From positions 3,637-67,636 of the forward strand of contig JAKAMI010000001.1 in NCBI GenBank assembly GCA_021812945.1: a DNA stretch of 64,000 nt. The letters run 5' to 3'. Shown in pieces: positions 5,881 through 56,485 of this stretch; positions within the stretch are counted from its first letter, which is position 1, and every line of letters starts with the position of its first letter. The position numbers were made by a program, and so were the translations under genes. Under the pieces are notes generated by a model. The model did no database searches, had not been told where the DNA came from, and was given only the letters and a program-made list of their open reading frames with translations. Source of the stretch: a bacterium. GTDB taxonomy: Bacteria > Patescibacteriota > UBA1384 > XYA2-FULL-43-10 > JAKAMI01.

Positions 5881-5940
5881 AAGTCCGAAGGTGTGAAGCT
5901 ATTACACATCCGATGTGTAATAGCTTCACACCTTCGGACA
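5881..5940. terminator. Long perfect hairpin (25-bp arms) downstream of obg, upstream of the rpoB promoter
   Basis: TCCGAAGGTGTGAAGCTATTACACA-TCCGA-TGTGTAATAGCTTCACACCTTCGGA. Confidence 0.55.
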
Positions 5941-5974: not shown

Positions 5975-7033
5975 TTAGAGCGATTCAAGGAGCTGTTTGG
6001 TGCCGAGGTGGGTGGAAGCAGAGAGAGCTAATATCATAGAGCCCTTGAGAGCTTTTTGGAGAATGTTCAATTTCTTTCGGAGATCTTTTTCGTCAATAGT
6101 TTCTATCTTACTCAAAACCACTATCTCTCTTTTTGAGGTTAATTTTTTGCTGAATTTTTCCAGTTCCGATCTGATTATTTTATAATCTCGCAACACGTCG
6201 TCGCTACCGGCGTCAATTAAATGAATGAGAGTTTTGGTGCGTTCGATATGGCGTAAAAACTTATCACCAAGACCTTTCCCTTGGTGAGCGCCTTCAATCA
6301 GCCCGGGGATATCGGCGATAACGAATTCTTTTCGGCCAATCTTGGCCACTCCGAGATTGGGCGAGAGAGTGGTAAAAGGATAATCGGCAATCTTCGGTCC
6401 GGCATTAGTAATGACAGACAATAATGTTGATTTTCCGGCGTTTGGCAGGCCGATGATGCCGACATCGGCTATTAATTTTAACTCTAAAAACAATTCCTGC
6501 TTCTCGCCCGGCAAACCCTCTTTGGCCCACTGCGGAGCCTGTTTGATCGAAGTCTTGAAATGCCAGTTACCCCAACCGCCGTTGCCGCCTTTGGCGATGT
6601 TTAATTCTCGATTCTCGGCGGTGAAATCAAATAGTAATACTTTATTGAGTGGATCCCGGGTCAAGCCCGGGATGACAAAAGAAGAGTCAGGGATGACAAA
6701 AGAGGAGTCGAGGGTGGCAAAATGAGAAGATTTTAAATTTTTGATGTATATCTGAGTCCCGACAGGGACTTTGAGAATGAAGTCCTCCCCGTTTTTACCC
6801 TTTTTTCGATCGGTCATGCCGTTTTGACCGTCCTCGGCTTTGAAATAGCCGATTCGGTCTAGGTCGGTCAGAGTGGTGACATCGCGGTGAGACACTAAAA
6901 TTACGTCGCCGCCGCGGCCTCCGTCGCCGCCGTCCGGACCGCCTTTGGGACGATATTTTTCACGCAAAAAAGAAACGGCTCCGTCGCCGCCTTTTCCCGC
7001 CTCCACCTTGATTTTTGTTTGGTCTAAAAACAT
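5975..7033 (-). CDS. obg: GTPase Obg
   Basis: Obg-fold N-terminus (MFLDQTKIKVEAGKGGDGAVSF), G1 GIIGLPNAGKSTLL, G3 DIPGLIEGA. The ORF-track start at 7075 is a read-through extension over the upstream palindromic element. The ATG at 7033 gives the canonical N-terminus. Contains an in-frame 21-bp tandem duplication (DSSFVIP x2). Confidence 0.9.
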   Translation of the reverse strand: MFLDQTKIKVEAGKGGDGAVSFLREKYRPKGGPDGGDGGRGGDVILVSHRDVTTLTDLDRIGYFKAEDGQNGMTDRKKGKNGEDFILKVPVGTQIYIKNLKSSHFATLDSSFVIPDSSFVIPGLTRDPLNKVLLFDFTAENRELNIAKGGNGGWGNWHFKTSIKQAPQWAKEGLPGEKQELFLELKLIADVGIIGLPNAGKSTLLSVITNAGPKIADYPFTTLSPNLGVAKIGRKEFVIADIPGLIEGAHQGKGLGDKFLRHIERTKTLIHLIDAGSDDVLRDYKIIRSELEKFSKKLTSKREIVVLSKIETIDEKDLRKKLNILQKALKGSMILALSASTHLGTKQLLESL

Positions 7034-8451: not shown

Positions 8452-9666
8452 CTATTTTTGGCCTATAGCAACTGAGAGACTTGAGGGTAGAAACGAAGCC
8501 ACTGTGACTCCGGCTGGAACTTTAAACATTGCGGCGGTAAGATCGACGCCGATACCGCTACTCGTAGATTTATTTGCTAGATCCAAATTTAGAACGACAT
8601 CGGCGGAGGTCAGATTATTCACTAAATTCGCCGGCCCCGAGGCTACGATTTTAACGGCACTCGGGGTATAACCGGTCACCGCAAGACCGGGATTCAGATT
8701 GATCGGATTGATAGTCGCAACAATTTCTTTCGAAGTTGAAGTGCCGCTAAACGAAATTGTTACTTTAACCTTCTGGTTGCTGTCTTTTTGCAAAGTTATT
8801 CCCGCTGGCAAAGATAGGGCGACTGTTTTAACCAGAGTATCGCTTTGGCCGGCAATGTCGACAGGAAGTGTCTCGATATATTGGGTGGTTCTCAAAAGTG
8901 AATCCTGGCCGACAACATCGACCGTCGCCGGGTCCACAACAATGTTCGAAACAAAGAAACCGCTGGCTGCCAGGCCGGTGGTGACCGCCTTAACTCCGAC
9001 CGTTTTATTATTTCCTGCTTTAACTATTGTTACATCCGCCTTAGCCGTGGCTGGATTGATTGTGATCTCGTTTATCGCTTCGTTTTTATCATTTAGTACG
9101 GAAAGGGTAATGTCTCGGCTGAAACCGTCCGACTCGCCGTTTAGTTTGACGATGGCCGAGGCCGCCGTAGCTCCCCCAATCAGGCTTTTGGGGCCGGAAA
9201 TTTCGACTTTATCGGGAGTAAAATCAATGCTACCGATGGTCCGACCGTCGGCAGCCTGGCCGATGATGACTGCCGCCACCGAGACCGTTTTTTTCTCAAC
9301 CGGTTCCAACCGCACCATAATATTGGCCGGATCGACTTCTATGACCGAAACATTTGGCAGGTTCGGATTGACTATTACTTTAAGGTTGTGAGTTCCGGCG
9401 GCCAGACCGTTTAAGTCCACAAAAGCTGAAAAATTGTCGCTCGAAAGCTGTTTCCAGACGCTTGGATCGGCGGCAATCTTTAAGTTCACTTCTTTGGTAT
9501 CGTAAATAGCGGAAAAGTTGGTCGGGACATTGACCGCTTTGACCGGGATGCTTCCCGGGAATTTGGCGACATTGTTCTGAGCCGCGGCTACAAAAACCCA
9601 CAAACCCAGCGCCAGGAGCAGGGCAACTATTTTCATACCCAGATTGTGTGTTACCAGCCTAATCAT
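8452..9666 (-). CDS. cdaR: CdaR/YbbR-like regulator of diadenylate cyclase (repeated YbbR domains, N-terminal TM)
   Basis: 404 aa with an N-terminal TM helix, then repeated beta-rich YbbR-like segments. Immediately downstream of cdaA, as in cdaA-cdaR operons. Confidence 0.7.
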   Translation of the reverse strand: MIRLVTHNLGMKIVALLLALGLWVFVAAAQNNVAKFPGSIPVKAVNVPTNFSAIYDTKEVNLKIAADPSVWKQLSSDNFSAFVDLNGLAAGTHNLKVIVNPNLPNVSVIEVDPANIMVRLEPVEKKTVSVAAVIIGQAADGRTIGSIDFTPDKVEISGPKSLIGGATAASAIVKLNGESDGFSRDITLSVLNDKNEAINEITINPATAKADVTIVKAGNNKTVGVKAVTTGLAASGFFVSNIVVDPATVDVVGQDSLLRTTQYIETLPVDIAGQSDTLVKTVALSLPAGITLQKDSNQKVKVTISFSGTSTSKEIVATINPINLNPGLAVTGYTPSAVKIVASGPANLVNNLTSADVVLNLDLANKSTSSGIGVDLTAAMFKVPAGVTVASFLPSSLSVAIGQK

Positions 9667-10507: not shown

Positions 10508-10712
10508 GATACTCTTGACCTCAAGACTAGTTCTATTTTAGCAAAACGAGTAGCATAAGCAAACTTTTCCAGGGAAATTTCAATAACCAAGACACAATAA
10601 CCAAAACTAGCTTGATTTAATTTTGTTTGAAACAAAAAAATGAGAGACGAATGAGTAGGCTGGCTAGGGCGGCCGGGAGCGCAGACAAAATCCTTAAGAC
10701 GTTAGAGTTAAA

Positions 10713-18959: not shown

Positions 18960-19022
18960 TATATTGAGATCCTTTCACAAACCTATTGCGCAGATAATAC
19001 CGATTTTGCCTACAAAGACAGT

Positions 19023-19063
19023 CTTTGCAAATGTGTCTAAAGACTGTCATCACTAGCCATCGG
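19023..19063. repeat. REP-like palindrome (AAAGACAGTCTTT family)
   Basis: ACAAAGACAGTCTTTGCAAATGTGTCTAAAGACTGTCATCA, upstream of gyrB. Confidence 0.75.
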
Positions 19064-20391: not shown

Positions 20392-20781
20392 TGGTGGAGG
20401 TGGCGGGAGTCGCACCCGCGTCCGAAAGGTAAAAACTTAAACTTCTACAGGCTTAGTTCCGATGAATTTTGTTTGAACAAGTGAAAATATCGGAACAAAT
20501 ATCACCTGCTCTATCTAAAGTAAGTCTTAAGGCGAATCGCTTTAGAACCGATAAGCCAGCAATTCGAAGTATGACGTGGTAATACTTTGGTCGAATAGCC
20601 AAAGTAGCCACGGTCGCGGCGATTAGGCTGCGACTGGCGCAAAAGTCATTCCTGCAAGAGCAGTATTGATTTTTGCTGAAAGTGATTTGACACTTAGTTT
20701 TGTCAACGCTTATACGGCGATTGACTCACCGGCCTGCTGCTTAAGTTTTTAATGTCCTTCCGTCGAAGCTAATACACCCCC
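20392..20781 (-). ncRNA. ssrA: tmRNA (ssrA), ~390 nt
   Basis: Minus-strand 3' end UUUCGGACGCGGGUGCGACUCCCGCCACCUCCACCA is nearly identical to the E. coli ssrA 3' end. 5' end GGGGGUGUAUUAGCUUCGACGGAAGG carries the UUCGACGG hallmark. Acceptor pairing GGGGGUG/CACCUCC. Candidate tag ORF GCA AAA AUC ...GUC GCA GCC UAA gives AKINTALAGMTFAPVAA. Confidence 0.88.
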
Positions 20782-28016: not shown

Positions 28017-28057
28017 GCAAAGACAGTCTTTACTGTATTTACAAAGACTGTCTTTAC
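28017..28057. repeat. REP-like palindrome (AAAGACAGTCTTT family)
   Basis: CAAAGACAGTCTTTACTGTATTTACAAAGACTGTCTTTAC. Confidence 0.75.
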
Positions 28058-30807: not shown

Positions 30808-30900
30808 ATTTCAGTCATCCTGAGCTTGCGAAGGATCTACCGAAGCGGATTTGTCCGGATGATGACAGTCTTTGCAAATGCCTTTAAAGACTGTCATCAT
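30808..30900. repeat. Degenerate MITE-hairpin copy (TCATCCTGAGCTTGCGAAGGATC) fused to a REP-like palindrome
   Basis: GTCATCCTGAGCTTGCGAAGGATCTACCGAAGCGGATTTGTCCGGATGATGACAGTCTTTGCAAATGCCTTTAAAGACTGTCATCAT in a divergent intergenic region. Confidence 0.7.
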
Positions 30901-30962
30901 CCTATAGAATTTTTCAAGCGGTTTTGGCAGAGTCGGACTTATTGTGATAATATAACCGTAAG

Positions 30963-31493
30963 ATGGTACAGATAATCTTTGAAGCTCACGGCACGACTTT
31001 TGACAACGAGGCTAAGCGAGCCTCGGGGCACTTTGATGTTGATTTGTCCCCCTTGGGCGAAAAACAAGCCGAGGAGCTCGGAGAACGACGGGGCGATGAT
31101 AACTTTGATGCTATCTTTTGCTCAGACCTGAAGCGCTCTTTTCACACTGCCGAAATCGCTTTCGATGGAAAGACCCCGATCTTTCGAGACGACCGGCTAC
31201 GGGAGTGCGATTATGGAGACATGACTCTGAAGTCGAGCGATATTGTTGAAAAAGAAAAAGGCCAAAGAATCTCAAAACCCTTCCCCGGAGGAGAAAGTTA
31301 CGAACAAACGACTGAAAGGATGAAAGAATTTCTGACCAGTCTAAAAAGACATTATACCGGTAAAAAAGTCCTCGTGATTGGCCATCGCGCCACCCAGTAC
31401 GCTCTGGAGAATCTGATAAACAAAGTGCCCCTGGAAAAAGCGGTCACTGCCCCTTGGTCCTGGCAGCCGGGCTGGGAGTACAAATTATCATAA
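30963..31493 (+). CDS. Histidine phosphatase (phosphoglycerate-mutase-like) family protein
   Basis: N-terminal IIFEAHGTTFDN (RHG-like motif with Arg replaced by Ala), later GHRATQYAL. Confidence 0.65.
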   Translation: MVQIIFEAHGTTFDNEAKRASGHFDVDLSPLGEKQAEELGERRGDDNFDAIFCSDLKRSFHTAEIAFDGKTPIFRDDRLRECDYGDMTLKSSDIVEKEKGQRISKPFPGGESYEQTTERMKEFLTSLKRHYTGKKVLVIGHRATQYALENLINKVPLEKAVTAPWSWQPGWEYKLS

Positions 31494-33817: not shown

Positions 33818-33866
33818 TATGCCTAAAGACAGTCTTCACACGCCTAGCAAGACTGTCTTTAGGCAT
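33818..33866. repeat. REP palindrome flanking the RAYT gene (3' side)
   Basis: TATGCCTAAAGACAGTCTTCACACGCCTAGCAAGACTGTCTTTAGGCAT. Confidence 0.85.
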
Positions 33867-34435
33867 TAATCTACATCAAATACATCTGCAGGGAATATCT
33901 GACTGGCATTTTCCATCATTTCGAGAAATGTTCTTTTATTTAATCCCAAAGGGGCCAATAATTTACGATCGCAGTATCTATGTCGAGCGGTATTTGTATG
34001 CTCTCTATAGCTGGAGTACGGATAATCCTCAGGTTGCTTACAAAGATTTTCTTTCACCGGGTTTAGGTGTATGTAATCAACCAGATAATGAAGATATTCA
34101 TCGACAGTTACAATTTTTTGTTTGTACCGATCTTGGAATAAATGACCAATCGAATTATATTTCTTATTAAAAGATTTAGAATAGCTTGTGGTTAAAGGGG
34201 ACATAATTTTGCTTGGGGGATTTTCCAACAGTTGCTTTACCAGTAGATGAAAATGGTTAGGCATCAAACAGTATGCGATGATCGAAAAATCATATTTGTC
34301 GCAATTTTCTTTCAGTCGTTTTAGAAAATATAAATAATCGTAGAAGTCCACAAAAATGTTCCTCTTTTGATTCCCGCGATTGTATAGGTGGTACAGACAA
34401 TTCGGGGCGGATTCCTTATACTTAGAGACACCCAT
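33866..34435 (-). CDS. IS200/IS605-family HuH tyrosine transposase (REP-associated tyrosine transposase, RAYT-like)
   Basis: HuH motif CLMPNHFHLL, catalytic Tyr in GHLFQDRY, N-terminal YHLYNRGN. Flanked on both sides by inverted REP palindromes. Confidence 0.82.
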   Translation of the reverse strand: MGVSKYKESAPNCLYHLYNRGNQKRNIFVDFYDYLYFLKRLKENCDKYDFSIIAYCLMPNHFHLLVKQLLENPPSKIMSPLTTSYSKSFNKKYNSIGHLFQDRYKQKIVTVDEYLHYLVDYIHLNPVKENLCKQPEDYPYSSYREHTNTARHRYCDRKLLAPLGLNKRTFLEMMENASQIFPADVFDVD

Positions 34436-34505
34436 TTTGACCCTCCATATGTGTATATATGTGTATTATACCACTTATACCACCTGTATTCCAGATTGAC
34501 AGCTT

Positions 34506-34554
34506 TATGCCTAAAGACAGTCTTGCTAGGCGTGTGAAGACTGTCTTTAGGCGT
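34506..34554. repeat. REP palindrome flanking the RAYT gene (5' side, inverted orientation)
   Basis: TATGCCTAAAGACAGTCTTGCTAGGCGTGTGAAGACTGTCTTTAGGCGT. Confidence 0.85.
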
Positions 34555-34636
34555 GAATGGCATCGGGTGCGGATAAGAAAAATCCCTGCATTGCTGCGGG
34601 ATTTTTCTTTTGATCAAAAACAAAAATTAAATCAGA

Positions 34637-36528: not shown

Positions 36529-39500
36529 TCATTGTCCCCTCATTTTGGTCAAAAACCTCGGCACCCAGGAGAAAGAACCGGTAATGGCGTCCATAATCAT
36601 CTGGAAGAGCTGTTTCTGCTTGGGCGGAGTGATCAGCGAAAAATCATCGGAAAAAGACTGATTGGCAGACCGATCCTTTGAGGTGACTCTGGCGTGGTAA
36701 GCCGAGTTTGCCTTGAGATCGTTCAGGATAATGACGTGAGTTTGGTTGAGAGACAAGTCCTCCTTTGTTTTCGAATCGTATGTTCCGGAAACCCCTTGGC
36801 CGTATTCGACCTGGCTTGTTGCCGACTCGTCGGTCTCCCAAGAGATGATGGCCTGATATTTGATGGCATTACCCGAACCGCTGGAGGTAATCTCGCTCTT
36901 CAGATTGGAAATGACCGGCGGAGTGGTATCGGCAGTGGTGGTGAAACTTATCTGACCGGAAACCGCGGTGTTGCCGAACTTATCCGTGCCTCTGGCAGTC
37001 GCGGTGTAGCCTTGCTTGGCCACCAAGCCGATGATAGTCACCGAGTGAATGGTGGTAGAATCGGATTTGCCCTGCTGACCCTGCTGGATGGCGGTTGGCG
37101 CATTTTGATCGACAGCCCGGCCTTCAACTTGAATAGCGGCGACGGGGGAGGTGGAAGCAAATTCAACATTGGAATCGGTATTGACGTTGGTATTCCAGGC
37201 GAGGGTGGCCGAGTTGGCCGAAGTCTCAGTAGCTTTGAAATCGGAGATTATCGGCTGCGCCGGAGTGGAAAAGACATAATCGTCCGAGGTGGTAATGTTG
37301 CCGTCCGTGTCTGTGGCTTTGATGCGGAGGTGATAAATGGCGCCGTCTTTAAGCTTGTCAAGCTTAAACTTGTGCTCGGTATTTAAGGTGGTGTCGATCA
37401 GGGTTGCGCCATAGCCGGTGGAATCGCCATAGTCCAAGCTAGTGATCGAGAGTTTGGAGGTGGACCAGGAGACCAGCGCTCCGGTCTGGGTAATGTCGGA
37501 GATAGTGGTGCCGGAAATCAGAAGCAGGATCCGCTCCGGTGTGGTGAAATCCAGCACATCGGAGTAACCAGCAATCTGAATCTCGTTCTTGGAGATAACC
37601 TTAAAGTAGTATTTAGCGGCCGGATCAAGATTGTAAAGCCAGATCTCGTGATTTAGAGTCATCTTCGGATCGCCGGCGATCTTAACGACCCCGCCATTAT
37701 CCGCAGTCATATCATCTTTGGCGTGGATTGAACTGGTCGAATAGGCCACCGAGGAGTCAGCGTTCTGATCGGTATCCCAGCTGATCTTGGCGCGAACTCC
37801 TTGGTCTTGTTTCCAGCCGAAGAGCTCGACCTTGGGTTTGGCCGTGACATCGGGTGCCGAACCGGGTTGAGATGAGAGCGGGCCGGCCGGAATAGAGAGG
37901 TTGCCGGCAGTGTCTTCGGCCTGAACCTTGTAGGCGTAAGTAATGCTGGAGGAGAGGTTAATATCCAGAAAGCCGTTTTTGGTGGTGGTGTCGACCTGAG
38001 AGTAAGTTGCGCCGTCGGTCGAACGGAAAACATGATAAGTCTTGGGTACCGGCACCACGTCATCCCAGACCAACGTCAAACGATACTTATTTGTCGCTAT
38101 GGTTGACCCATCCTTGATGGCAAAGTTGGCCGGCGTGCCATACAGAGTTTTGGAGGTCTGGGTTAAATTGTTCTCAAGATCCCTAAACTTGAAGTAGATA
38201 ATGTTTTTGTTTTGCAAATCAAAGTTATTCTTTGACGTTGCGTAACTCTCCCAGGAACCGCCGGCAAAGCCGGAGTCCATCGAGATCATCATCTGGATCG
38301 GATTTGAGTCATCGGTGACGTTTAAGACCAAGTTGACCGAGCCTCCGGCCGAGGCATCGCTAACAATCGAGTTGACCAACGGGTTCTTGGAGTCCAGAGT
38401 CAACAAGCTGGAATCGGCATAAGCATTTGAGCCTTGAGCGGTGACTTTGACCCGCATCTTGAAGGTGTTGTTCAAGAATTGGCCGTCAAAATCGACTTTG
38501 GGATCAAAGTAGGCGGTGTATTGCGGCAGGCTGGCGTCACCGTTGAAGCTGCCGTTGGTCTGTCCGGATTGAGCAGGGGCCGAAGCATTGGCCCAGGAGT
38601 TGCCGCCGGAGTTAAAGTAAGCGAGACTGACTTGGCTCGGCCAACGCAGTTTATACATCACCTTGACCTTGCCCGGATTGGCCGGATCGGTGCGGTCGAG
38701 CTGGACCGCCGTTACCTCTCTGGGGGCAATGTCGGCCGGCACGGCGTCTAAGGTGATACTCTTGTCGGTTTCAAGGTAAGAGTTGTCCTGTTTTTTGTAG
38801 GCATAAGAAACTTTGTAGTAGTAGTGGTTGCCGTTGGTCAGACCGGTGTCGGTGTAGTCAGTGCGCGTGCCGGCAGTTACCGCCAGCGGGTTGGGAGTGG
38901 TAACGATCTTGCTGTAGTTGGTCGGAAAGGCGGAACAGTCGGTGGTCGGGCTTAAAACGGGGCCTGCGGCGCAACGATAAATATAGGCCTGCGGCGTCAA
39001 GCCAGTGTCGGCCGGTATGTCAAAAGGATTGGTCCAAGTCAGGGTGACTTGCTGATAACCCGGGGCGGCTTCGATCAGATCGTTGACAAGGCCGGTGTGG
39101 TCGGTGGCGGTGTGGCGCGAGCCGGGAATATGAGTGGTAACGTAGACTTTGCTCGGATTGTTGGTCGAGGCCGGAAAGATACCGGTCGAGGCCGGATTTT
39201 TCGAAGGATCGGCCGGTTCAAGCCGCGGATCGGTTTTTTTGGTTGAAGGATCGGTAGCATAAGTCGAAGTTGGATCGACACATTCTGAGGCCGAAAGACT
39301 TTGGTAGCCGCCGGTTTGGAACTTGAAGTAATTTGTCGGGGTGTTTTGCGGAGTAAAGGTATGTGCCCCGAGATCGCCGGCCGGAAACTGGAAACAGCCG
39401 GAAGAGTCGGTCGAAACGGTCTTAGTGTAAGGCAAAACCGCTTGGGCATCGGAAGAATAAAAGTAAACCATACCGGCCTTAGAAGTCGGATCGTAGCCGT

Positions 39501-42500
39501 AGTCGGTTTTGACATTGCCGAAAGCGTCGAAGGCCGTCAGGGTGACATTTTCGCTAAAAGTAGTGTCGACTTGTTTTTCGTAATTGACCGAATTTCGAGA
39601 AATGATCGGGGTGGTGGTAATGCCGAAATGGTCGATCGACTGCGGTTTGACCGTGATGGTAAAGTCGGAAAACTTGTTGCCGTTATCCGAGGTCTTGACC
39701 CGAAAACGCAGATCTGTGCCGGAAGTCACCACGTTGAAACCGCTGCCGGCAAACTGATGAACACCGTTGTCGGCGCCGGTGCCCGAAGTAAAAGTATAAT
39801 GGGTGAGATAATCGTTGGCAAAGGTAAAATTGGCCGTGGAGCTTGCCGGATTGCCCGGGGTATCCGAGCCGCGATAAAGCTCAAACCAGACTTGACCGGT
39901 AAAGTTGTCTTTGACGTTGTTGTAGGCGTCGTAGGCGGTGACGTTGGGATTGTAGGGAGCGGCGGAGAAGCCGGGGGTATCCCAGGTGAAGTTACTCATA
40001 GCAAATCTTTGGGAGGCCGTTTGCGGGTAGGAAGCTAAGCCGAAATGGTCGGTTGAAGCGGCCGTGACGAAAATATTACCAATAGCATCGTATCTACTAC
40101 CTTCGGAGTTGTGCACCACAATTGACTGATTATCCTTGGTCTTTAGAACAAAGCCGGTGCCGGGGAAAGTATGAGCCCCGTTGTCCCCTCCGGCGCCGGT
40201 CGTGAAGGTGTATTTTACAACGTCCGTATAGGGAAAAGTCGCCTGCGAGTCGGAGGAGTAAAACCAGATTTGGCCGGTCCAGTCGTTTTTGGTATTGCCG
40301 TAAACGTCTTTGACCGTGACCACGATGTCATTGGCCGGCGAGGTAAAGGGAGTGCCGGCCACGATGTTAGTCGGATAACCGGAAAGCTGGAAGGAGCCGA
40401 AACCGGCCGGCTTGACGGTGATGCCTTGCGTCGCGTCTGTCCAGCCCAGCGACGGCGTCTCGGAAACAGTGATGGTATAGGGCACGCCCACCGGATTGGG
40501 CGAGGTGTCCTTGTAAAAGAAATTGGCGGAGTTTGAACCGACGCCGATTGTCAGGGTGTTGCTCGGAACCGTGGTCAAGCAACCGCCATCAGAGTAAAAA
40601 TGGCCGGTGGCGGAGTTGGTTTGCAGCACAAAGTTTTTCGCTCCCTCGGTGGCGGTTAAGGCGACGTCCTCGTTAATGACGTTTCGAATGCGATACTCCA
40701 TAATCGCCGAGCAGAAGGTGACGGTAATGTTTTGGGCGGCGGTGGTAAAAGCGGTGTGATCGATCGGAGCCACGGTAAAGGAACGGGCGGCCGAGGCGGC
40801 AGACCAGTGCTTGGAGCCGTCAAAGGAGTCCACACCCTCGGGGTCGTAAGCATAAGCGCGATAGTAAAAGGTGTCGCCCTGATGAAGTGCGGTAGCCAAA
40901 GTCAGCACGGCATCGCGGCCCGAGGAGTAGCCGCTGGTGCCGGCGACTTTGCCGGTAGCCATATCCTGATTGGAGAAATTGGCCGTGCGGTTGCCGTCGT
41001 TTGGCGTTTGCGACACGGTCTCGTCGAAAGTCGAGACATTCTGGCTAAAGCTGGCATCGGTCGCCAGCTGCAACTTATATTGAATCCAGTCACCATCCGG
41101 ATCGGTCGAATTAAAGTGAAAAGCGATAAGTTGAGATTGGTTGATGGCGCCATCAGTCGAGGGCGCGGTAATGGTCGGAGCGCTCGGCGAGTGCTGAACT
41201 TGAATAGTGCCGTTGCCGCCGGCCGCGCCGCCACCAACACCGCAAGTACCGCCGGTGGCAGTCTTGGCGCCGGTATATGTATCAGTAGCCGGATAAATAG
41301 CTATTCGCCCTCCGCCTCCGCCGCCGCCAAAAGAGGCGCTGTTGCCGCCGTTGGCGGTAATGGTTGCGCCGGTGGTGCCGGACAATGTGCCCGAGACAAC
41401 CACTTGCACCGAGCCGCCCGAGCCGCCGCCAAAACCGGCCCCGCCATCGGTACCGTTGGCGGTGATCTTGCCGGTTGCGCCCATCGCCAAGTTGCCGGTG
41501 ACGTTCATCTTGACCATGCCACCGCCGGAGCCGGCGTTACCGGCCCCCGACTGGCCGGCGTGCCCGCCGCCCGAGCCAAGATAATTGTTGTTTGTCTGGC
41601 TGCCGTAGGCCGCGCCGCCAACTGAGCCGCCGGAAGAGTTGCCGCCGGCTCCGCCGTAACCGCCGCCCGAGCCATAGGCCCAGTTGGCCACCACGCTCCC
41701 GTGCCCGGGTCCGGCGTCTTGAGCAAAGCCGTTGCCGTCGGCCGAAACCGTCCCCGAAAGAGTCAGATTGCCCCCGACATTCAAAGTCGGCCAAGCACCC
41801 TGCGTGGGCGTGCCGGAGTTGTCCGAGAGCATCGTGAGGGAAGAATTGGAAGCTATCGTAACCGCCCCGGTAGTGGTGACGATTTGGTTTTTTGAAAGAG
41901 CAAAATTACCCTTGTTGAGGATTGAAATAGAATCAAAAGCGTATGTTGCAGTATCTGTAGATGTTTTGAGAAAAGTATACCCGGGACCAGTGTTACCGTT
42001 ATTGTTAACAATGAGTCTACCATTTGCTTCACCTGGATGTATCTCAAAAACCGTCCCTGCTGATGCATAGAAACCATTATAGGAACCAAGACTATAAGCT
42101 GAGTCAACTCCGTTATATGTCCATGAAGAATTTGCAGAAATCTTGACCCGACCACCACTTCCGGCACCGCAACCAGTCGAGTACCCATTAGCCGATATGG
42201 CCCCATTTCCCGCAAAGTTAACCGTTGTAATATTTATAGAACCACCAGCTGCACTTTGATTGTTTCCCCCATTCGCCAAAATACTATTGGTCGAGTTGGC
42301 GCTTACTGTTCCGGTGGCATTTATTGCCGCTACACCACCACCACCGGTAGAATAGCCACAAACAGCAGTCCCTCCAAGTAACGAAGGATTCGAGTAGTCA
42401 CCAAAAGCATCGCCCTGCGGGTACCCCTGGCCGCCATAACTATAATTACCAGTACCTAATAATCCTTGGGTTGAAACATCTATTTTACCGCCATTCTGCA

Positions 42501-45500
42501 GAGTCAAATTAACAAGGTTAAGTATAAGTTTGTAGCTCTCAGACGTCGTATTTGCTACATGTGACACAACACCACCAGTATCAACAGTCATATTAAAGAG
42601 CGCTCCTCCGCTAGAATCTGTAATTTTACCAGTAATACTCCCCCCACTCGGTGCCTGATACCAGCCTGTATCGCAAAGCGTCGTGCCGTCGGCTTTTTTG
42701 CAGGTCGTACCCATCTCGAGGGTGTAATTCGAAACCGTCCAGCCAGTCGCCGGAACTTTCAGAGTACCATAAACGTCAAGCACACCGCTGGTCGCGCTGC
42801 CTGTAAAAGGAGTATTGGCCGAAATATCTAGTGTTTGGCCCGTAAAGATTGCTAATCGGCCCTGGTTCTTGACAGTTATCACATCAAACACGTACGATCC
42901 ACTGTCGCTTGAGGTTTTAAGGGCTGTGTTTTGAGAAGTCGCTTGGTTCGAGTTATCAATAATAATTTCACCGTTTGCTTCCCCGGGTTTTCTGACAAAA
43001 ACCGTTCCAGCAGCCCCCACATTGCCTCCGCCCCAATTACCACCATAGGCAACAGCTGAACTAACCGAATATGTCCCGGTGGCCTCCAAAGCGATTCTTC
43101 CACCCGATCCTCCGGGGTAAGCACTGCCGTCGCTCGCAGAAACAGTACCGGTACTTGTCAGGTTTGTGGTCTTTAGCCATATGCTACCGCCGGCGCCGTT
43201 TGAGGGCGCATTGGATAAGATACTGCCACTATTTGTCACGCTGGTTGCTATAATTTTGGCTACACCTCCTCCGGCTTGGCCGCCATAGTACTGAGTACCG
43301 CCGCTACCCAAGCGGTTGGGGGAATCATAACTGCCGTATTGGCTATTGGTATATCCATAACCATCACCGCCATATGAGCCACCCCTAGAGTTCAAAGCGC
43401 CGCCGGCCGGTCCCTGAATATATCCCATACCAGAGACGTCTACTTTACCCCCAGTTTGAATAGTTAAAGATCTCAAATTAACAATAAGTTTGTACTGTTC
43501 GGTGCTTGTATTCTGAACTAAATTGTAGGCTTGGGATAATGCTCCACCACTGGCTATCGTCAGATCCACAACATTACCACCAGTCGGATCGGTTATCTTG
43601 CCATAGAGGGTTGTATTGGCCGTAGTGTCGTCCCAACCGGGATCGCATCCGCCCCCGGCATTTTTGACACAACTGGTGCCGACGCCTAGAGTATAATTGG
43701 ATACCGTATAACTGGTCGGGACTTTGATCGTACCAAAAGTAGTTAGAGACCCAGTGCCATCCCCGCCGATAGTGGTGCCCGAAGTAATATCGAAAACCTT
43801 AGAGGTTCCGTTAATATCAAGTTTTCCGCCGGAATTGAGAGTAATGGCCGTAAAAGTGCTTCCGCCCGTGGAATTTTGAACGCTGTTCGACGAGGCTCCG
43901 TTATCAACGAGTCTGAAGCCGGAAATTGTTGGCGAATCTTTGAGCTTTATTACTCCGGTAGCCTTGATAAGCCCGGTACAATAGTAGCCGATAGCGTCAG
44001 CGCCACCGCCGTAAGTATTGCAGGCGCCACCGCCGGTAATGTCAAAAGCTGAGGCGTTTACGGTTTGGCCGGAAACAATTTCCAGCCGGCTTCCCTTATT
44101 GACTGTGATTGCATCAAACGTATATACCCCTGTGTCAGTCTCTCCCATCAGGGTTGCGCCAAGATCTGAGCCGTTGTCGAGACCGGCGTTATCCAAAACT
44201 AATCGCCCATTGGTGTCCCCAGGCCGTTTCTCATAAACCGTGCCGTTACCCCCGGCATCATTCCAGCCATCAACTACCTTGCTTGCCGACTCAGTTCCGC
44301 TAAAAGACCAAACGCCCGTTGCATAAATCGCTAATCGTCCACCACCGCCCGATGACGGAGCACAACAGCCATTTGAACCGCTCCTAGTCACGACTGAACC
44401 GTTACCCGAAAAGGACGCCGAGGTTATCCAAATACTACCTCCCGAGCCTCCGCCAGAACCTGTACCCGATGCCGACATTGTTCCGTTAACCGCCACTGAA
44501 CCGGTTGAGGTGATTTTGATCGCCCCACCAGAATTACCGCCACTGCCCAAGCTTACCGGTTGTGAATAACTCCCATAAGTAGCGTGGGTAGAATTATTAG
44601 CTGATCTGCCTCCATACTCACTGGTCGTTTTTAAGCCGGGGCCGTTTGATTTGCCTTTTGCGTCAGCGTTCATATTACCGTTGGTACCAATAACAAGACT
44701 GCCTACGGCATATTCATTCCCCCGCCCGTCAGCCAAACTACCATGCAATACAGTCGTGTCTCCGTCCGAGGTCACTATACCAGAATTGATAATAAATTCG
44801 CCGGTAATATTAATCTTATACGGGTCAACGTTCTGCGACGGCTTATTTTGAAAATTAATCGTGCCGGAGTAACCGGTCTCCACATATAGGCCGCCGAGAC
44901 CATCGACAATACCGTTGCCGGAGGTGAAAGTTGTTACCGTGCAATTTTGGACCGAAGATGGGTCAAAGACAACGATGTCGCCAGCCGCCGGCGCCCCTGA
45001 AGGCGTCCAGTTGGCTGCGGTTTCCCAGTTTCCGGCTGCCGCGGCGGTCCAGCGTTTGACACTCGGGGCGTAGTTTAAATTGTAAGGGCTGGCCGTACCG
45101 GAGACAAAGACCACCGGAGAATAGGAGTTAATGCCGCTGTTTCTGTTTGTAAATATTTTCGCGGATGCGGCCACCCAAGCGAACGAACCACTTAACGTCG
45201 CATTGTGCCCACCGCTAGAGGAATCGGCAGCTAATGTTCCAGATCCTTCATCAAAATGCCACAACCCAACGGTATTGCCGTCGGTTGTAAACTGATTTAT
45301 TGGGGGGGGAAAACTAGATGTATAACGCGCGATGTTTGAGATTCTAAGTTCGTCGATTGTTCCAAAATTTTGCCCTCCATAGGCCATACTGTTGCCAAGC
45401 ACAGTAATATCATCTGTCAGCTGCATATTTGCCGTCCCAACAAGCAAGCCGTCAATATACATTTTCGTCGTCCCGGAACTGCCAACCCCAGTAAGATAAT

Positions 45501-48210
45501 GCCACCCTGAAGTTAAACTAGTTACATTATAATTCGACGTGTAGAAGTTCCCGTTATAAACCCCCAACTGGCCATCTCTTTCAACAACAATATGCTGGTT
45601 ACTTATGGTGCCCTTTACAAGTGTCCGACGACCGTCACCGGTTGTTGGCAAAGGAAATTGCACCCACGCCTCCACTGTCCAAGTGCTACCAATTACAACA
45701 TTTGATACAGTGCCAGAACCAGAACTTGGGGAATTAAAGTTTATTGCTGCATTACTGGATCCCGTTTGCGTAACAGGTGTCGGCTTCAGTGCTGCCTGGG
45801 CGATCAGGTTGTTGCCGTTATCGGTGGTGACGGCCACGGCCACGCCGAAAGTGCCGGCAGAGCCGATTTTTTCCGCATACTTGATATTGTAAGAATTGAC
45901 CCCGACGTATTCCGAGTAGTAAAGGTAGATGGCATCGTTTAAGCCCAGGCCGAGACTGGGATTTTTGTCATTGGCGTGGCTGGCGCCGGTGGTGACGGCG
46001 GTTGAGGCGGCGTCCCAGCTGGCGGCGGCGTTGGCACATTTGCGGTATTTGATCCCGACCGAGTTGTCTTTCCAGGCCAGATGGAGGTAGTGATCGCTGG
46101 TTTCCTGCCCGATCGAGAACTCTTGGTTTAGGGCGGTTCCGACATCGGAGGCGATGGTCTCGTTGGCCCAGCCGGCCGTTTGGAAAGTGCCGGCAGTGGC
46201 GTAGTTCCACCTGAGAGAAGCATTGGCGAAGTTGTAGATAACAGCCGGATTATCATTCCAGAGAGTGAGGGCGGGGTAAGTGGCGGCATTGGTGTTGACG
46301 GCGGCCGATAATGTTGACGCCGCACCCCAAGTCGAGCCGTCGGCGGCAGTTGAGGCTTTGGCTTTGATAGTGTAGTTGGTGGCATCATAATACCGATAAG
46401 CGACAAAGATGGTGCCGGAAGATGTGACCGCAACGGCGGGGAAAGCCTGGGAAGTGCCGGCGCTCTCGACGGTTCTTTCGGTGCCGGTGGAGGTGATGGC
46501 GTGGGTAGCGGTGTCATAGGTCATCTGGCGGTAGAAGATGTAAGAGTTGGTGCCATTGTTGGAGTAGGCCAGATGGATCTTGTTGTCGGCGGTAATCCAA
46601 GAAGAGAAGCCGTAGTCATCGGTTAGAGTCGAGGCAAAGATTTGGGTGCCGGTGGCGCTCCAGGTGTTGCCGTGGTCGGAAGAGATTTTATATGAGAGGC
46701 CGTTACCGTCGGAGTAGATGTTGACCATATCCCCGTTGGTCGCCTCCAGTAGCGTCCGGTCTTTGGAGAAGGAGTTGGGGTTGGTGGTGGTGGAGGTAGC
46801 GACGGTGACGGTGGGGTCAATGGTTAGAGGATACTCAGGCGAGCCAAGACAGTCTTTCGGGGCATTGGCAAAGACTGTCTGGTTGCCGCTGCCTGAAAGA
46901 CTGTTGTCGCTGCCCGGAGACGACAGTCTTTGCCGGTAACAGGCATTGGTTTGAGCCAGCCAGTTTGGATCGATCTCATAGCGAGCTAGGTTGGCGCTTT
47001 GGTCTAGGGTTAGTTTAATCTTGTCGTCGAAATGATTGCCGGTTTTATCGGTTAAGGTCGCTTTGAGTAGGGTGAAGAGTCCCTCCTGAGTTTGTTGGTC
47101 TTTTAGCACATAGGAGCTGTCCGGGTTAGAGATGATACTTAAGTTGCTTAAATTACTTAAGTTAAAATCAATGGATGAAATGCTTCCAAGAGCTTTGGGT
47201 GAGTTTAGAACAAGGTCTTCTTTGAGCTTACCCGGGCTGACTTGGTAGTTGGCGGTAATCTCGGGGTTGATCTCGAGGGAGTACTTTTGCTTGGCTCCGT
47301 CGTTTTCGCGGATCTTGACACCGGAGGCAACCTCTTTCTTGGTTTTGACGTCATCCGATGTAACAGCTTTTGGCACATTGGGAGTATTTGTCTCGTTGGT
47401 CAGATTAGTCCCGTTGGTCGGGTTGGAACTGTCCGATGGAACATCAGCGGCTTGAGCAGTTTCAGCGAAGACAGCTTCAGCCAAGACAGTCTTTTTAGCT
47501 TCAGCAAAGACAGTCTTGTTGCTCCCCGAAAGACTGTTATCACTGCCCGAAGATGACAGTCTTTGCCGGTTTAAGGCAACCTGATCTTTGGGGACTAGAA
47601 GATCGAAACCGACTTTTCTAACCTCACCGTCTTTGTTCTGGGTAGCCACCGAGACCGAGGCATTTCTGGTTGTACGATCGGAGAGGTTGACCGTTAGCTG
47701 GTCGGAAGAACCGGTGATCGCGGCCGAGTCGTCAACTTTACCTTTGGCTTTTTCCTGAACATTGGGAATGTCCGCTCGCGAGCCGACAACAGCCACCGAA
47801 ACCGATTTAAGTCCGGAGAAAGGCTGATTGGCTTTTGTCTCCGAAAACGAGGAGGCATACAAGCTCAGCCCGAACACAAAAGACAGGCAGACCAAAGCCA
47901 AAGCTGAAATGTTTATCTTGGAGGCGTTGGGGTTTAAGTGCCAGAGGTAGTACCACCGCCACTTCATCCTGAGATTGTTGTGGACCGGGATAAAGAATCG
48001 AAAGCTAGTGCGAGTCGAGTTTTGAATGGACATCAACTGATTATTGAGCTTGGATTCGACATCCTGGCCACTGAACGATTCCGGTAATTTACCGGAAAGT
48101 TTGGCTGACCGGATAATTTTTTGCACCAGAAAAACGGCCGCCCCTTTAGGGAAAGTCAGAATTTTATGGATGATGTACCGGATTTTTAACATATAACCAC
48201 TAATAATCAC
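36529..48210 (-). CDS. Giant (3,893 aa) surface/adhesin-like protein. N-terminal membrane anchor, LamG-like lectin, BNR/Asp-box, long Gly/Ser-rich parallel beta-helix repeats, multiple FN3-like domains.
   Basis: Single uninterrupted ORF. BNR motif SDHGNTWS, LamG-like [19 protein letters not shown], extensive GGSGG/SGGSGGRI repeats, FN3-like C-terminal modules. Contains two in-frame REP-derived segments. Confidence 0.8.
46848..46935. repeat. REP-derived segment embedded in-frame in the giant protein gene
   Basis: CAAGACAGTCTTTCGGGGCATTGGCAAAGACTGTCTGG...GAAAGACTGTTGTCGCTGCCCGGAGACGACAGTCTTTGCC. Encodes [29 protein letters not shown]. Confidence 0.65.
47465..47575. repeat. REP-derived segment embedded in-frame in the giant protein gene (second copy)
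   Basis: GAAGACAGCTTCAGCCAAGACAGTCTTTTTAGCTTCAGCAAAGACAGTCTTG...GAAAGACTGTTATCACTGCCCGAAGATGACAGTCTTTGCC. Encodes [36 protein letters not shown]. Confidence 0.65.
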
Positions 48211-48221
48211 TAAAACTCAGT

Positions 48222-48260
48222 GATAACAGTCATTTTAAATGCAGTAATGACTGTCATCTT
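48222..48260. repeat. REP-like palindrome variant (AACAGTCATTTT...TAATGACTGTCAT) upstream of the giant gene
   Basis: GTGATAACAGTCATTTTAAATGCAGTAATGACTGTCATC. Confidence 0.6.
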
Positions 48261-51332: not shown

Positions 51333-51389
51333 CTTATCCCCTCCGCCTTAGAACTTAAGTCTGTAGCGTTTTCAACTAAGATATGTCAT

Positions 51390-51475
51390 CCTGAGCTAAT
51401 TTCTGTCATCCTGAGCCTGCGAAGGATCTATTCCATAGACAAAGATTCTTCACTGCATTCAGAATGACAGTCTAA
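51390..51475. repeat. Degenerate MITE-hairpin copy (left boundary of GC-rich islet)
   Basis: ATGTCATCCTGAGCTAATTTCTGTCATCCTGAGCCTGCGAAGGATCTATTCCATAGACAAAGATTCTTCACTGCATTCAGAATGACAGTCT. Confidence 0.65.
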
Positions 51476-52146: not shown

Positions 52147-52288
52147 ATTAGTTTGTAGCAAAATGTGGCTTGTTCCGTCATCCTTAAGCTGATGTCTGTG
52201 ATCCTTAAGCTTGTTCTGTCATCCTGAGCTTGCGAAGGATCTCTACTTATGGAATAGATCCTTCGCAAGCTCAGGATGACAAAATACG
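52147..52288. repeat. MITE-like element with perfect 24-bp hairpin arms (right boundary of GC-rich islet)
   Basis: ATTAGTTTGTAGCAAAATGTGGCTTGTTC...GTCATCCTGAGCTTGCGAAGGATC-TCTACTTATGGAATA-GATCCTTCGCAAGCTCAGGATGAC. Near-identical to 56385..56485. Confidence 0.85.
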
Positions 52289-55373: not shown

Positions 55374-55441
55374 CTTGTCAACACAAAAACCACCCATGAT
55401 GGCGGTTTTTGTGTTGACAATCCGCTATAAATAGCTATAAT
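55374..55441 (+). promoter_or_regulatory. Terminator hairpin (20-bp arms) overlapping the rnpB promoter: -35 TTGACA 55414-55419, -10 TATAAT 55436-55441
   Basis: TTGTCAACACAAAAACCACC-CATGAT-GGCGGTTTTTGTGTTGACAA, then ATCCGCTATAAATAGC and TATAAT. The predicted start lands on the P1 5' strand. Confidence 0.5.
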
Positions 55442-55474: not shown

Positions 55475-55641
55475 CCGTGTAAAGCACGGAATGATCAAAA
55501 TAATATTCAATGATCAAGGATCAGTTAATGTTCAATTATCAATGATCAAGCAAGTACTTGAAAGTTGAAACTTGATATTTAATTGAAAATTGATATTTGA
55601 AACTTGAAAATTAATCTTTGATACTTCCGCGCTTTGCGCGG
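55475..55641 (+). repeat. rnpB insertion 1 (167 bp) at the P3 position
   Basis: Begins CCGTGTAAAGCACGG, AT-rich TGATCAA/TTGAAA core, ends CCGCGCTTTGCGCGG. The two termini are imperfect inverted repeats (14/15 pairs as RNA). Confidence 0.85.
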
Positions 55642-55738
55642 CTGGGGAGGAAAGTCCGGGCACCAAAGAGTATGGCACCAATGAAAGTTGGCTGGCGTAA
55701 TGCCACGGGAATAGTGCAACAGAAAACATACCGCCGAA

Positions 55739-55912
55739 CCGTGTAAAGCACGGAATGATCAAAATAATATTCAATGGTCAATGATCAATGATCAGTTAAT
55801 ATCCAATTATCAATAATCAATTTAACTATTGAAAATTGAGAATTGATACTTAATTGAAAATTGACACTTGAAACTTGAAAATTAATCTTTGATACTTCCG
55901 CGCTTTGCGCGG
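55739..55912 (+). repeat. rnpB insertion 2 (174 bp) at the P9 position
   Basis: Same termini and core as insertion 1. Replaces the P9 hairpin between ...ACCGCCGAAC and UGGUAAGG. Confidence 0.85.
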
Positions 55913-56076
55913 TGGTAAGGTTGAAATCGTAGTGTAAGAGACTACGCGTTTGATGGGAAACTATCAACTGTGAAAACCCTGCCTGGTGCAAGTTGGGTGG
56001 GCCCTTTATCATCATTTGCGGCTTCTCGTCGCGATGACCTCGGGTCCCAACGCTTAGATAGATTATTGCCGCCGCG

Positions 56077-56250
56077 CCGTGTAAAGCACGGAATGATCAA
56101 AACAATGTTCAAGGATCAATGGTCAATGATCAGTTAATATCCAATTATCAATGATCAAGCGAGTACTTGAAAATTGAGACTTGATATTTAATTGAAAATT
56201 GATATTTGAAACTTGAAAATTTATCTTTGATACTTCCGCGCTTTGCGCGG
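56077..56250 (+). repeat. rnpB insertion 3 (174 bp) in the linker between the P2 and P4 3' strands
   Basis: Same termini and core. Flanked by ...UUAUUGCCGCCGCG and CGAGGUACAGAACCCGG. Confidence 0.85.
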
Positions 56251-56345
56251 CGAGGTACAGAACCCGGCTTATAGGTTCGTTTAAGCACAGAGCTACATTT
56301 AGGCCTCCGTAACTTTATGGCCTGTCCCCTTCGGGGGAATGTGGC

Positions 56346-56384: not shown

Positions 56385-56485
56385 ATTAGTTTGTAGCGAA
56401 ATGTAGCTTGTTCTGTCATCCTGAGCTTGCGAAGGATCTATTCTATAGGTAGAGATCCTTCGCAAGCTCAGGATGACAAAATATC
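56385..56485. repeat. MITE-like element with perfect 24-bp hairpin arms (second full copy)
   Basis: ATTAGTTTGTAGCGAAATGTAGCTTGTTCTGTCATCCTGAGCTTGCGAAGGATC-TATTCTATAGGTAGA-GATCCTTCGCAAGCTCAGGATGAC. Confidence 0.85.

Follow-up and report, generated by a model that had tools for sequence, protein, structure and literature searches.

The 64-kb stretch of DNA analyzed here (hereafter the window; contig JAKAMI010000001.1 of assembly GCA_021812945.1, from a member of the Patescibacteria) carries, at positions 33866-34435 on the minus strand, a gene for a 189 amino acid (aa) Y1 HUH nuclease. The gene is related to the REP-associated tyrosine transposases (RAYTs; REP, repetitive extragenic palindrome) and lies between two inverted copies of a 48-nucleotide (nt) palindrome, which is also represented elsewhere in the window. 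The locus is probably a REPtron or TIRtron (TIR, terminal inverted repeat), i.e. a single-copy, vertically inherited, RAYT-like class 2 Y1 HUH nuclease of single-stranded DNA (ssDNA) together with its cognate DNA element. The cognate element appears to be a nested palindrome, in which two 11-13-nt odd palindromes of the form AAGAC(A/T)GTCTT are about 24 nt apart and would together fold into an ssDNA hairpin of about 18 bp. The system is of a known kind, and the window locus is a new instance of it in an under-surveyed phylum. RAYT/REP systems have, to our knowledge, been characterized almost entirely in Proteobacteria, Cyanobacteria and Bacteroidetes, and no paper linking RAYT or REP to Patescibacteria was found in the searchable literature. 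An earlier reading of the window, made from the sequence only, had called the genome CPR-like (CPR, candidate phyla radiation). This agrees with the window RuvB sequence, which is 71-74% identical to proteins of Patescibacteria/Candidatus Berkelbacteria, and with the nearest named RAYT homologues, which are from Patescibacteria.

The RAYT-like protein

The motifs YHLYNRGN, CLMPNHFHLL and GHLFQDRY, which the sequence-only reading took as hallmarks of a Y1 transposase, are all present in the translated product of the 189-aa open reading frame (ORF). Profile and structure searches bear out that assignment. The NCBIfam profile for REP-associated tyrosine transposases is passed, if narrowly, at 80.4 bits. 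Y1_Tnp (PF01797) is the sole domain found by Pfam, with a score of 61.1 bits (cut-off 23, E-value 1.4e-16) over profile positions 3-119 of 121. The closest sequence in the Protein Data Bank (PDB) is E. coli TnpA_REP (4ER8, ~18-25% identity), the structure of which is a complex with a REP hairpin. An AlphaFold (AF2) model made from 26 homologues has a pLDDT (predicted local distance difference test) of 90.7. When PDB folds are ranked against this model 4ER8 is first, followed by the IS200, IS608 and ISDra2 transposases (top matches 4ER8, 2F4F and 2VJV). The protein is thus a Y1 HUH nuclease in identity and fold, and its catalytic motifs are intact.

The HUH motif is found at H61-F62-H63 and the 'W' motif at F100-Q101; Y121 is accompanied by N125-P126, and the tail carries S141-S142. 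Residues H61, H63, F100, Q101, Y121, N125, P126, S141 and S142 are invariant in the alignment of 26 homologues. In E. coli TnpA_REP the catalytic residue is Y115, the HUH histidines are H59/H61 and N119 is a metal ligand (Messing 2012, PMC3479197). In the alignment with the window protein Y115 corresponds to Y121 (in VDYIHLNPV), H59/H61 to H61/H63 and N119 to N125. The sequence-only reading had placed the catalytic tyrosine in GHLFQDRY, and in this it was mistaken. The tyrosine of that motif (Y104) is replaced by phenylalanine in 11 of the 26 homologues and also in E. coli TnpA_REP. Because Y104 varies and the E. coli Y115 aligns with Y121, the nucleophile is predicted to be Y121 of YIHLNP, and GHLFQDRY appears to be the 'W/FQ' motif of the family with the nucleophile elsewhere.

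A Y---NP tyrosine motif characterizes class 2 of TnpA-Y1 and Y---Q characterizes IS200 (PMC6006769). Subclass 2.1 is marked by NH[YF]H, FQ (or W[EQ]) and Y[IV]HLNP, with SS in the tail (Quentin 2018, PMC6006769, Table 1). The window protein has NHFH, FQ, YIHLNP and SS, i.e. the subclass 2.1 signature, the assignment being by motifs only. Subclass 2.1 is the Group 1 of Bertels (PMC5581495) and, according to those authors, is probably the 'TIRYT' group of Di Nocera 2013 (PMC3733652). The sequence-only reading of a RAYT with its cognate REPs is therefore supported as to the kind of system, but the protein appears to belong to the subclass 2.1/Group 1/'TIRYT' branch and not to the classical Proteobacterial RAYTs with their GTAG-tagged REPs.

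No C-terminal helix-turn-helix (HTH)-like domain (Bac_DnaA_C, HTH_23 or HTH_28) is detected by Pfam in the 189-aa protein. Its C-terminal tail of 45 aa is helical in the AF2 model. Homologues of about 300 aa carry Bac_DnaA_C (PF08299). The RAYT-like gene is present in one copy in the window, and the contigs that encode the exact protein all represent the same locus. Its neighbors are a PDDEXK gene and a DUF5679 gene, and tnpB is absent.

The flanking palindromes

The palindrome downstream of the gene, at positions 33819-33866, has an 18-bp stem, a 12-nt loop (CACACGCCTAGC) and two AAGACWGTCTT units. It shares 1 nt with the RAYT stop codon and lies 14 nt upstream of the start of the PDDEXK gene (33804). 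As ssDNA its predicted folding energy is -18.2 kcal/mol (z -8.9). The palindrome upstream of the gene, at positions 34507-34554, is 72 nt from the RAYT ATG and also has an 18-bp stem and a 12-nt loop (GCTAGGCGTGTG); its energy is -16.5 kcal/mol (z -7.9). The two are inverted with respect to one another and match at 46 of 46 nt, and their loops are mutual reverse complements. This is the arrangement described by the sequence-only reading, but the length of each palindrome is 48 nt and not 49.

Neither GTAG nor GTGG is found beside any copy, where the feet are TTTATGCC.../...GGCAT. Because no GT[AG]G tetranucleotide adjoins any copy, the window palindromes do not appear to be canonical REPs. No Rfam family matches the window palindromes.

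Two small features are found close to the upstream palindrome. Positions 34447-34466, between the RAYT ribosome-binding site and the likely -10 box, are a perfect 10-nt tandem duplication (ATATGTGTAT x2). Strain GCA_021842745.1 (locus L003; L numbers are our designations) has a single ATATGTGTAT unit, which is the sole strain insertion or deletion near the RAYT system. A bidirectional terminator-like hairpin at 34585-34600, with the DUF5679 gene on one side and the upstream RAYT palindrome on the other, displays three single-nucleotide differences between strains.

Homologous loci

The gene and its palindromes are also found together in other genomes. In six homologues (L005, L007, L009, L095, L099 and L102) the core AAG[G/A]AC[A/T]GT[C/T]CTT lies directly on both flanks of the gene. 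The DNA pattern alone led to a further locus, L067, in which a 55%-identical homologue sits between two core sets. The proteins of these seven close relatives are 47-55% identical to the window protein. The neighborhoods of the close homologues are unrelated, e.g. beside DnaJ, beside a glycosyltransferase or within type IV pilus operons. The sequence-only reading had raised the case of a transcription-factor operator, conserved at orthologous positions in relatives that lack the transposase. What is found is that the palindromes flank the gene itself in seven relatives with different neighborhoods, and the palindrome is tied to the gene.

The number of units per side is one in L095, two in most loci and three in L007. 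Because the number varies from one to three, the constant part appears to be the 11-13-nt odd palindrome and not the large hairpin. An extra core (AAAGGACWGTCCTTT, read as K-G-L/Q-S-F) is present inside the 3' end of the RAYT coding sequence at L005 10493-10506 and L009 2220-2233. The KG[LQ]SF motif is found in at least seven homologues, and the window gene retains only a degenerate trace of it.

A metagenome scan provided 80 further loci at 34-50% identity, and 76 loci with enough flanking sequence were analyzed. The inverted match between the upstream and downstream flanks exceeds the 99th percentile of a shuffle null in 61 of the 76 (80%). Scores of at least 16 are found at 45 of the 76 loci, versus 0 of 380 shuffles and 0 of 122 displaced controls. 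The unit sequence is specific to the locus, e.g. AGGTGCGACGCACCT/AGGTGCGTCGCACCT, AGAAGTTCAACTTCT/...G... and AAAGGTCTGACCTTT/...A.... The design however is shared, i.e. two odd palindromes with different central bases, placed within 0-40 nt of the start codon and 0-16 nt of the stop codon. As a shared sequence the GACWGTC core is common to the nearest clade, and the wider loci have their own units. Because each locus has its own unit but the same design of two odd palindromes, the element co-varies with the enzyme across the homologous loci.

A scan of contigs from the genome collection with the pattern GACAGTCTT-N11-15-AAGACTGTC gave at least 85 loci, almost all of them single generic hairpins (e.g. 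a conserved Collinsella site), and among the matches listed only L067 had an adjoining RAYT homologue.

An alternative is that the palindromes are regulatory or structural elements of the host, such as dimer operators, hairpins that stabilize or attenuate mRNA, or sites for a nucleoid protein, and that the copies adjoining the RAYT gene do no more than regulate it. Short odd palindromes such as the conserved unit are typical of dimer operators, and in L095 one unit on each flank is enough. The distance between the upstream element and the start codon is 0-40 nt in many relatives, a position at which a hairpin in the RNA could block the ribosome-binding site. However conservation is just as strong for the element that follows the stop codon, the unit sequences co-vary with the enzyme locus by locus, and no palindrome copy is called by intrinsic terminator prediction. 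We consider a host function of this kind unlikely, and the dispersed copies described below bear on it as well.

Retention at one chromosomal site

In L095, L099 and L102 the gene and its palindromes are retained between the pilin and prepilin-peptidase (PilD) genes. The three loci represent three different species, with identities of about 90% for NusG, about 76% for PilD, 76-82% for T2SSF and 59-61% for the RAYT-like protein. RAYTs are inherited vertically at a single locus (Bertels 2017, PMC5581495). The syntenic retention observed here is consistent with this RAYT behavior and unlike that of an insertion sequence (IS). Overall, a RAYT-like gene is found within a type IV pilus cluster in four lineages (L095, L099, L102 and L007), in three of which it occupies the gap between pilin and prepilin peptidase.

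The palindrome-gene-palindrome unit could also be an autonomous IS of the IS200/IS605 type that moves as a whole, with the solo copies as relics or derivatives similar to miniature inverted-repeat transposable elements. The protein is a homologue of the Y1 transposases and, as in the IS200/IS605 TnpA proteins (IS608, ISDra2), there is the same fold, the HUH/tyrosine chemistry and hairpin DNA adjacent to the gene. Gene neighborhoods differ in the more distant relatives, and Group 1 is the most IS-like of the RAYT groups (PMC5581495). Nevertheless the protein fails the IS200 equivalog profile of NCBIfam (22.9 bits versus a cut-off of 55) and has Y---NP in place of the IS200 Y---Q. IS200/IS605 elements have multiple near-identical copies, asymmetric subterminal hairpins and often tnpB. 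The window element by comparison has identical, inverted ends instead of asymmetric subterminal hairpins on one strand, no tnpB and one copy in the window, which is the same locus in all contigs with the exact protein. In addition, a single syntenic site is occupied in three species whose proteins are 59-61% identical. An autonomous IS is thus a very improbable explanation.

Dispersed copies

The density of copies was judged over ~73 kb, i.e. the 64-kb window and 9 kb past its right end. This region has two flanking, four solo and two composite sites. In the window the 12-mer AAAGACAGTCTT (at most one mismatch) occurs 15 times versus 0.49 expected, and the full hairpin pattern 5 times versus 0.00 expected.

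Solo copy A is at positions 19014-19051 (AAAGACAGTCTTT-GCAAATGTGTCT-AAAGACTGTCATC; fold z -4.0) and is intergenic, between two minus-strand genes. The sequence-only reading had recognized this copy, although it placed it about 10 nt to the right, at 19023-19063. Its other three solo copies (28017-28057, 30861-30900 and the variant at 48222-48260) are likewise real, with the boundaries given here. Copy B, at 28019-28055, has perfect 13-mers AAAGACAGTCTTT / AAAGACTGTCTTT and an 11-nt loop (z -6.4). It lies between glycosyltransferase and DUF4012 genes, and its loop is like that of the RAYT-flanking copy in L005. Copy C, at 30857-30902, has a 17-bp perfect stem, GGATGATGACAGTCTTT/AAAGACTGTCATCATCC (-17.9 kcal/mol, z -9.1), and is found between divergent genes, 61 nt ahead of the gene start at 30963. 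Copy F, at 48222-48260, is diverged (AACAGTCATT...AATGACTGT), with a compensatory CATT/AATG change in the arms. It is 12 nt upstream of the start of a giant gene and overlaps the stop of the preceding gene. The copies with stable ssDNA hairpins display z values of -4 to -9, and the fold of copy F is weaker (-2.7). A partial copy had been reported at 51455-51475. Here only a single half-site, ATGACAGTCT, is present (51464-51473), which is isolated, has no partner arm and is a doubtful member of the family. The copies are upstream of gene starts, as the sequence-only reading stated for most intergenic copies, but every copy except that at 30857 is also downstream of a co-directional gene.

The dispersed copies are homologous to one another. 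Solo copies A, B (reverse complement), C and F have the common loop TTTGYAAATGC.AGTAAAG, which resembles the loop of the gene-flanking element in L005. The outer stems vary among copies yet stay paired in copy C, in D/E (the flanking pair) and in L005. The arms of copy B and of composite 1 (described below) are identical to those of the flanking units, and their unit spacing of 24-25 nt matches as well. Because loops and arms are shared, the outer stems remain paired and the unit spacing is the same, the dispersed copies appear to be homologous to the RAYT-associated element.

It has to be considered that the solo and intragenic hairpins are a separate family that did not descend with the flanking palindromes, the GACWGTC core being shared by chance, and perhaps linked to a second palindrome family, GTCATCCTGAGC...GAAGGATC. 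Their loops and outer stems are unlike those of the flanking copies. The 8-mer CTGTCATC forms the end of copies A, C and F and is also found in the second family, and two of these copies adjoin half-copies of that family. Hairpins similar to TGACAGTCTT...AAGACTGTCA are found in other genomes without a nearby Y1 gene among the matches listed. Yet for an 18-base pattern in 596 Gb, chance alone predicts about as many matches elsewhere as the scan gave. The chance expectation of such matches in the window is close to 0. The perfect 12-13-nt arms of copy B and composite 1 do not differ from those of the flanking units, with the 24-25-nt spacing preserved, and the solo loops resemble the gene-flanking loop of L005. 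A chance resemblance of two families is accordingly given a very small probability, and common descent of the dispersed and flanking palindromes is preferred.

The second palindrome family, TTCTGTCATCCTGAGCTTGCGAAGGATCT...AGATCCTTCGCAAGCTCAGGATGACAAAA, is unrelated to the first. It is found at 52214-52284 and 56411-56481, where the 29-nt arms are 97% complementary. Half copies are at 30810-30838 and 51380-51430, each followed on the right, after 20-35 nt, by a GACWGTC element, and the 8-mer noted above is what this family has in common with solo copies A, C and F. It was not found beside RAYT homologues in the fetched loci. An identification of this family as mir-2300 was rejected, as the Rfam score is sub-threshold and the match is a hairpin artefact.

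All copies of the GACWGTC element are within 17.2 kb of the RAYT gene (19014-51473), and none is found at 1-19 kb, at 52-64 kb or in the 9-kb extension at the right end. This clustering near the gene may indicate local spread, the numbers being small and the test post hoc. Relatives recognized by RuvB (82-93% identity) show no copies of either palindrome family, their contigs ending before the copy-bearing region.

Of 24 loci with a defined unit, five (the window, L123, L162, L130 and L151) show the element at distances above 300 nt from the gene. Proliferation of the element would thus be sporadic, as reported for TIRtrons. L123 has a different unit (AGAAGTTSAACTTCT) and displays an intergenic array similar to a BIME (bacterial interspersed mosaic element), with four nested palindromes at a 46-nt period, and doublets on both sides of the gene. 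Its element sites are at 6709-6880, 9405-9545 and 10566-10660.

Composite copies in the giant surface-protein gene

The giant gene encodes a surface protein of 3,893 aa (36529-48210, minus strand). The sequence-only reading had counted two occurrences of the palindrome inside it, and these are two clusters of about 100 nt, each with 4-5 cores about 25 nt apart. Composite 1, at 46846-46934, has four cores ~25 nt apart that make up two adjacent hairpins, i.e. a doublet similar to a REPIN or BIME, and is in-frame. Composite 2, at ~47468-47567, is about 80% identical to composite 1 and is alike in orientation and frame. The long-range arms of the composite halves are 75% complementary over 28 nt. 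Within the giant ORF the core is translated in three frames (QRLS, DNSLS, QTVF, KDCL). Because three different frames are used, the composites are read as DNA repeats tolerated in-frame and not as a protein repeat. A search for homologues with the N-terminal 467 aa of the giant protein, which bears on whether the composites were insertions, gave no matches.

These copies bear also on the alternative in which the palindromes serve the host. All solo copies are intergenic and near gene starts, and copy C abuts a promoter-like site at 30924-30951, as might be expected of a regulatory element. The in-frame doublets within a coding region, read in three frames, do not fit such a role. The outer-stem changes are compensatory, and it would therefore be the hairpin that is maintained rather than a fixed operator sequence.

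Relation to known systems

TIRYT genes have TIRs in place of GTAG-tagged REPs, and some of these are self-complementary or 'double palindromic' (PMC3733652). The motif GGGGWSAS is found in many TIRYT TIRs, and other TIRs are unrelated to the motif and may be self-complementary (PMC3733652). The repeat families are moderately abundant, are present in few genomes and often form dimers or clusters (PMC3733652). The window locus is similar to a TIRYT/TIRtron in its motif signature, apparently low copy number, flanking inverted repeats and sporadic repeat families, and Bac_DnaA_C in the longer homologues is a likeness to subclass 2.1. It differs in the length of the protein (189 aa versus a median of 238) and in having no detectable C-terminal HTH. 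Also, GGGGWSAS is absent from the inverted repeats that flank the window gene, and the host belongs to the Patescibacteria, which are outside those surveys. Subclass 2.1 genes have been described as without nearby REP-like structures (Quentin et al. 2018, PMC6006769). Unlike these, 80% of the 76 homologous loci have flanking palindromes.

E. coli TnpA_REP, of subclass 2.2 and Group 2, provides the closest solved sequence and fold (4ER8). The two have in common the HUH and Y---NP active site, with N125 equivalent to N119. As in the E. coli REPtron, the gene, present once in the window, lies between inverted hairpin repeats of which further copies are found away from the locus. In-frame intragenic copies are known for REPs. 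Unlike E. coli REPs, the window palindromes have no 5' GT[AG]G and no bulged stem, and the unit is a short odd palindrome. RAYT-flanking repeats are expected to reach tens to hundreds of copies in a genome. E. coli REPs number in the hundreds and are genome-wide, but the window element has about eight sites in 73 kb, all in the vicinity of the gene.

In a REPIN, two inverted REPs form one long hairpin and the doublet is the replicating unit (Bertels & Rainey 2011, PMC3116915). The intragenic composites are similar in that each consists of two adjacent hairpins and spans about 100 nt, within the size range of a REP doublet, and the two composites are 80% identical. The composite halves however are only 75% complementary over 28 nt, and the solo copies of the window are singlets.

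Proposed mode of action and significance

By analogy with TnpA_REP and the IS200/IS605 transposases, e.g. IS608, the enzyme would bind the hairpin when it is exposed in single-stranded DNA, such as the lagging-strand template. A divalent metal would be bound by H61, H63 and N125. Cleavage near the hairpin would take place through a 5'-phosphotyrosine link to Y121 and be followed by re-ligation or strand transfer. In this manner palindromes might occasionally be copied or moved in trans. The outcome in the window would be the local family, i.e. four intergenic solo copies plus two doublets, each about 100 nt long and tolerated in-frame in the gene for the 3,893-aa surface protein. Expression of the RAYT gene is probably restrained by the flanking hairpins as well.

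Several points weigh against the REPtron/TIRtron reading. The pass of the NCBIfam REP_Tyr_transpos profile (NF047646) is marginal, at 80.4 bits versus an equivalog cut-off of 80. The solo copies and the gene-flanking copies have only the 10-13-nt arms and the spacing in common, and their loops differ. With no GT[AG]G guide, the rules of recognition and cleavage by E. coli TnpA_REP may not transfer. Dispersal is exceptional in the family, as 19 of the 24 loci with a defined unit are without copies beyond 300 nt. The available assemblies of the organism, all at least 99.86% identical, show no differences in presence or absence of palindromes. Binding and cleavage of the hairpin by the enzyme, and mobilization of the solo copies, are inferred from analogy.

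For Group 1/subclass 2.1, which has been reported as REP-less or merely TIR-flanked, the results from this locus and its 76 homologous loci show a regular, co-varying cognate element in this clade. They also show that the gene can stay together with its element at the same chromosomal position in different species, and that proliferation of the element is sporadic. The 48-nt hairpin with its 11-nt units would be a compact substrate for testing non-canonical recognition by a RAYT in which the GTAG guide is absent. The in-frame insertions of the palindrome are a possible source of variation in the giant surface proteins of CPR bacteria.

A more speculative proposal, about which we are doubtful, is that the CPR-rich clade is a distinct class of REPtron within subclass 2.1, with a module of paired 11-15-nt odd palindromes in which the central base is the sole difference, and that the system is active or was recently active in this organism, seeding local copies and in-frame doublets. 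If true, the module would have persisted on both flanks over a long vertical inheritance, co-evolving with the enzyme, and the system would generate variation in a surface protein of a symbiont with a reduced genome.

Other features of the window

The window has an RNase P RNA gene (Rfam RF00010, 124 bits; 55475-56287) of 681 nt, compared with 367 positions in the model. It carries two insertions of about 150 nt that repeat its own 5' segment. The region displays three direct repeats of about 175 nt that are ~90% identical, at 55475-55642, 55731-55915 and 56069-56251. A tmRNA gene is found at 20392-20781 on the minus strand (127.6 bits). Two other palindromes are present, i.e. a perfect one with 28-nt arms at 5883-5939 and one with 20-nt arms at 55375-55420.

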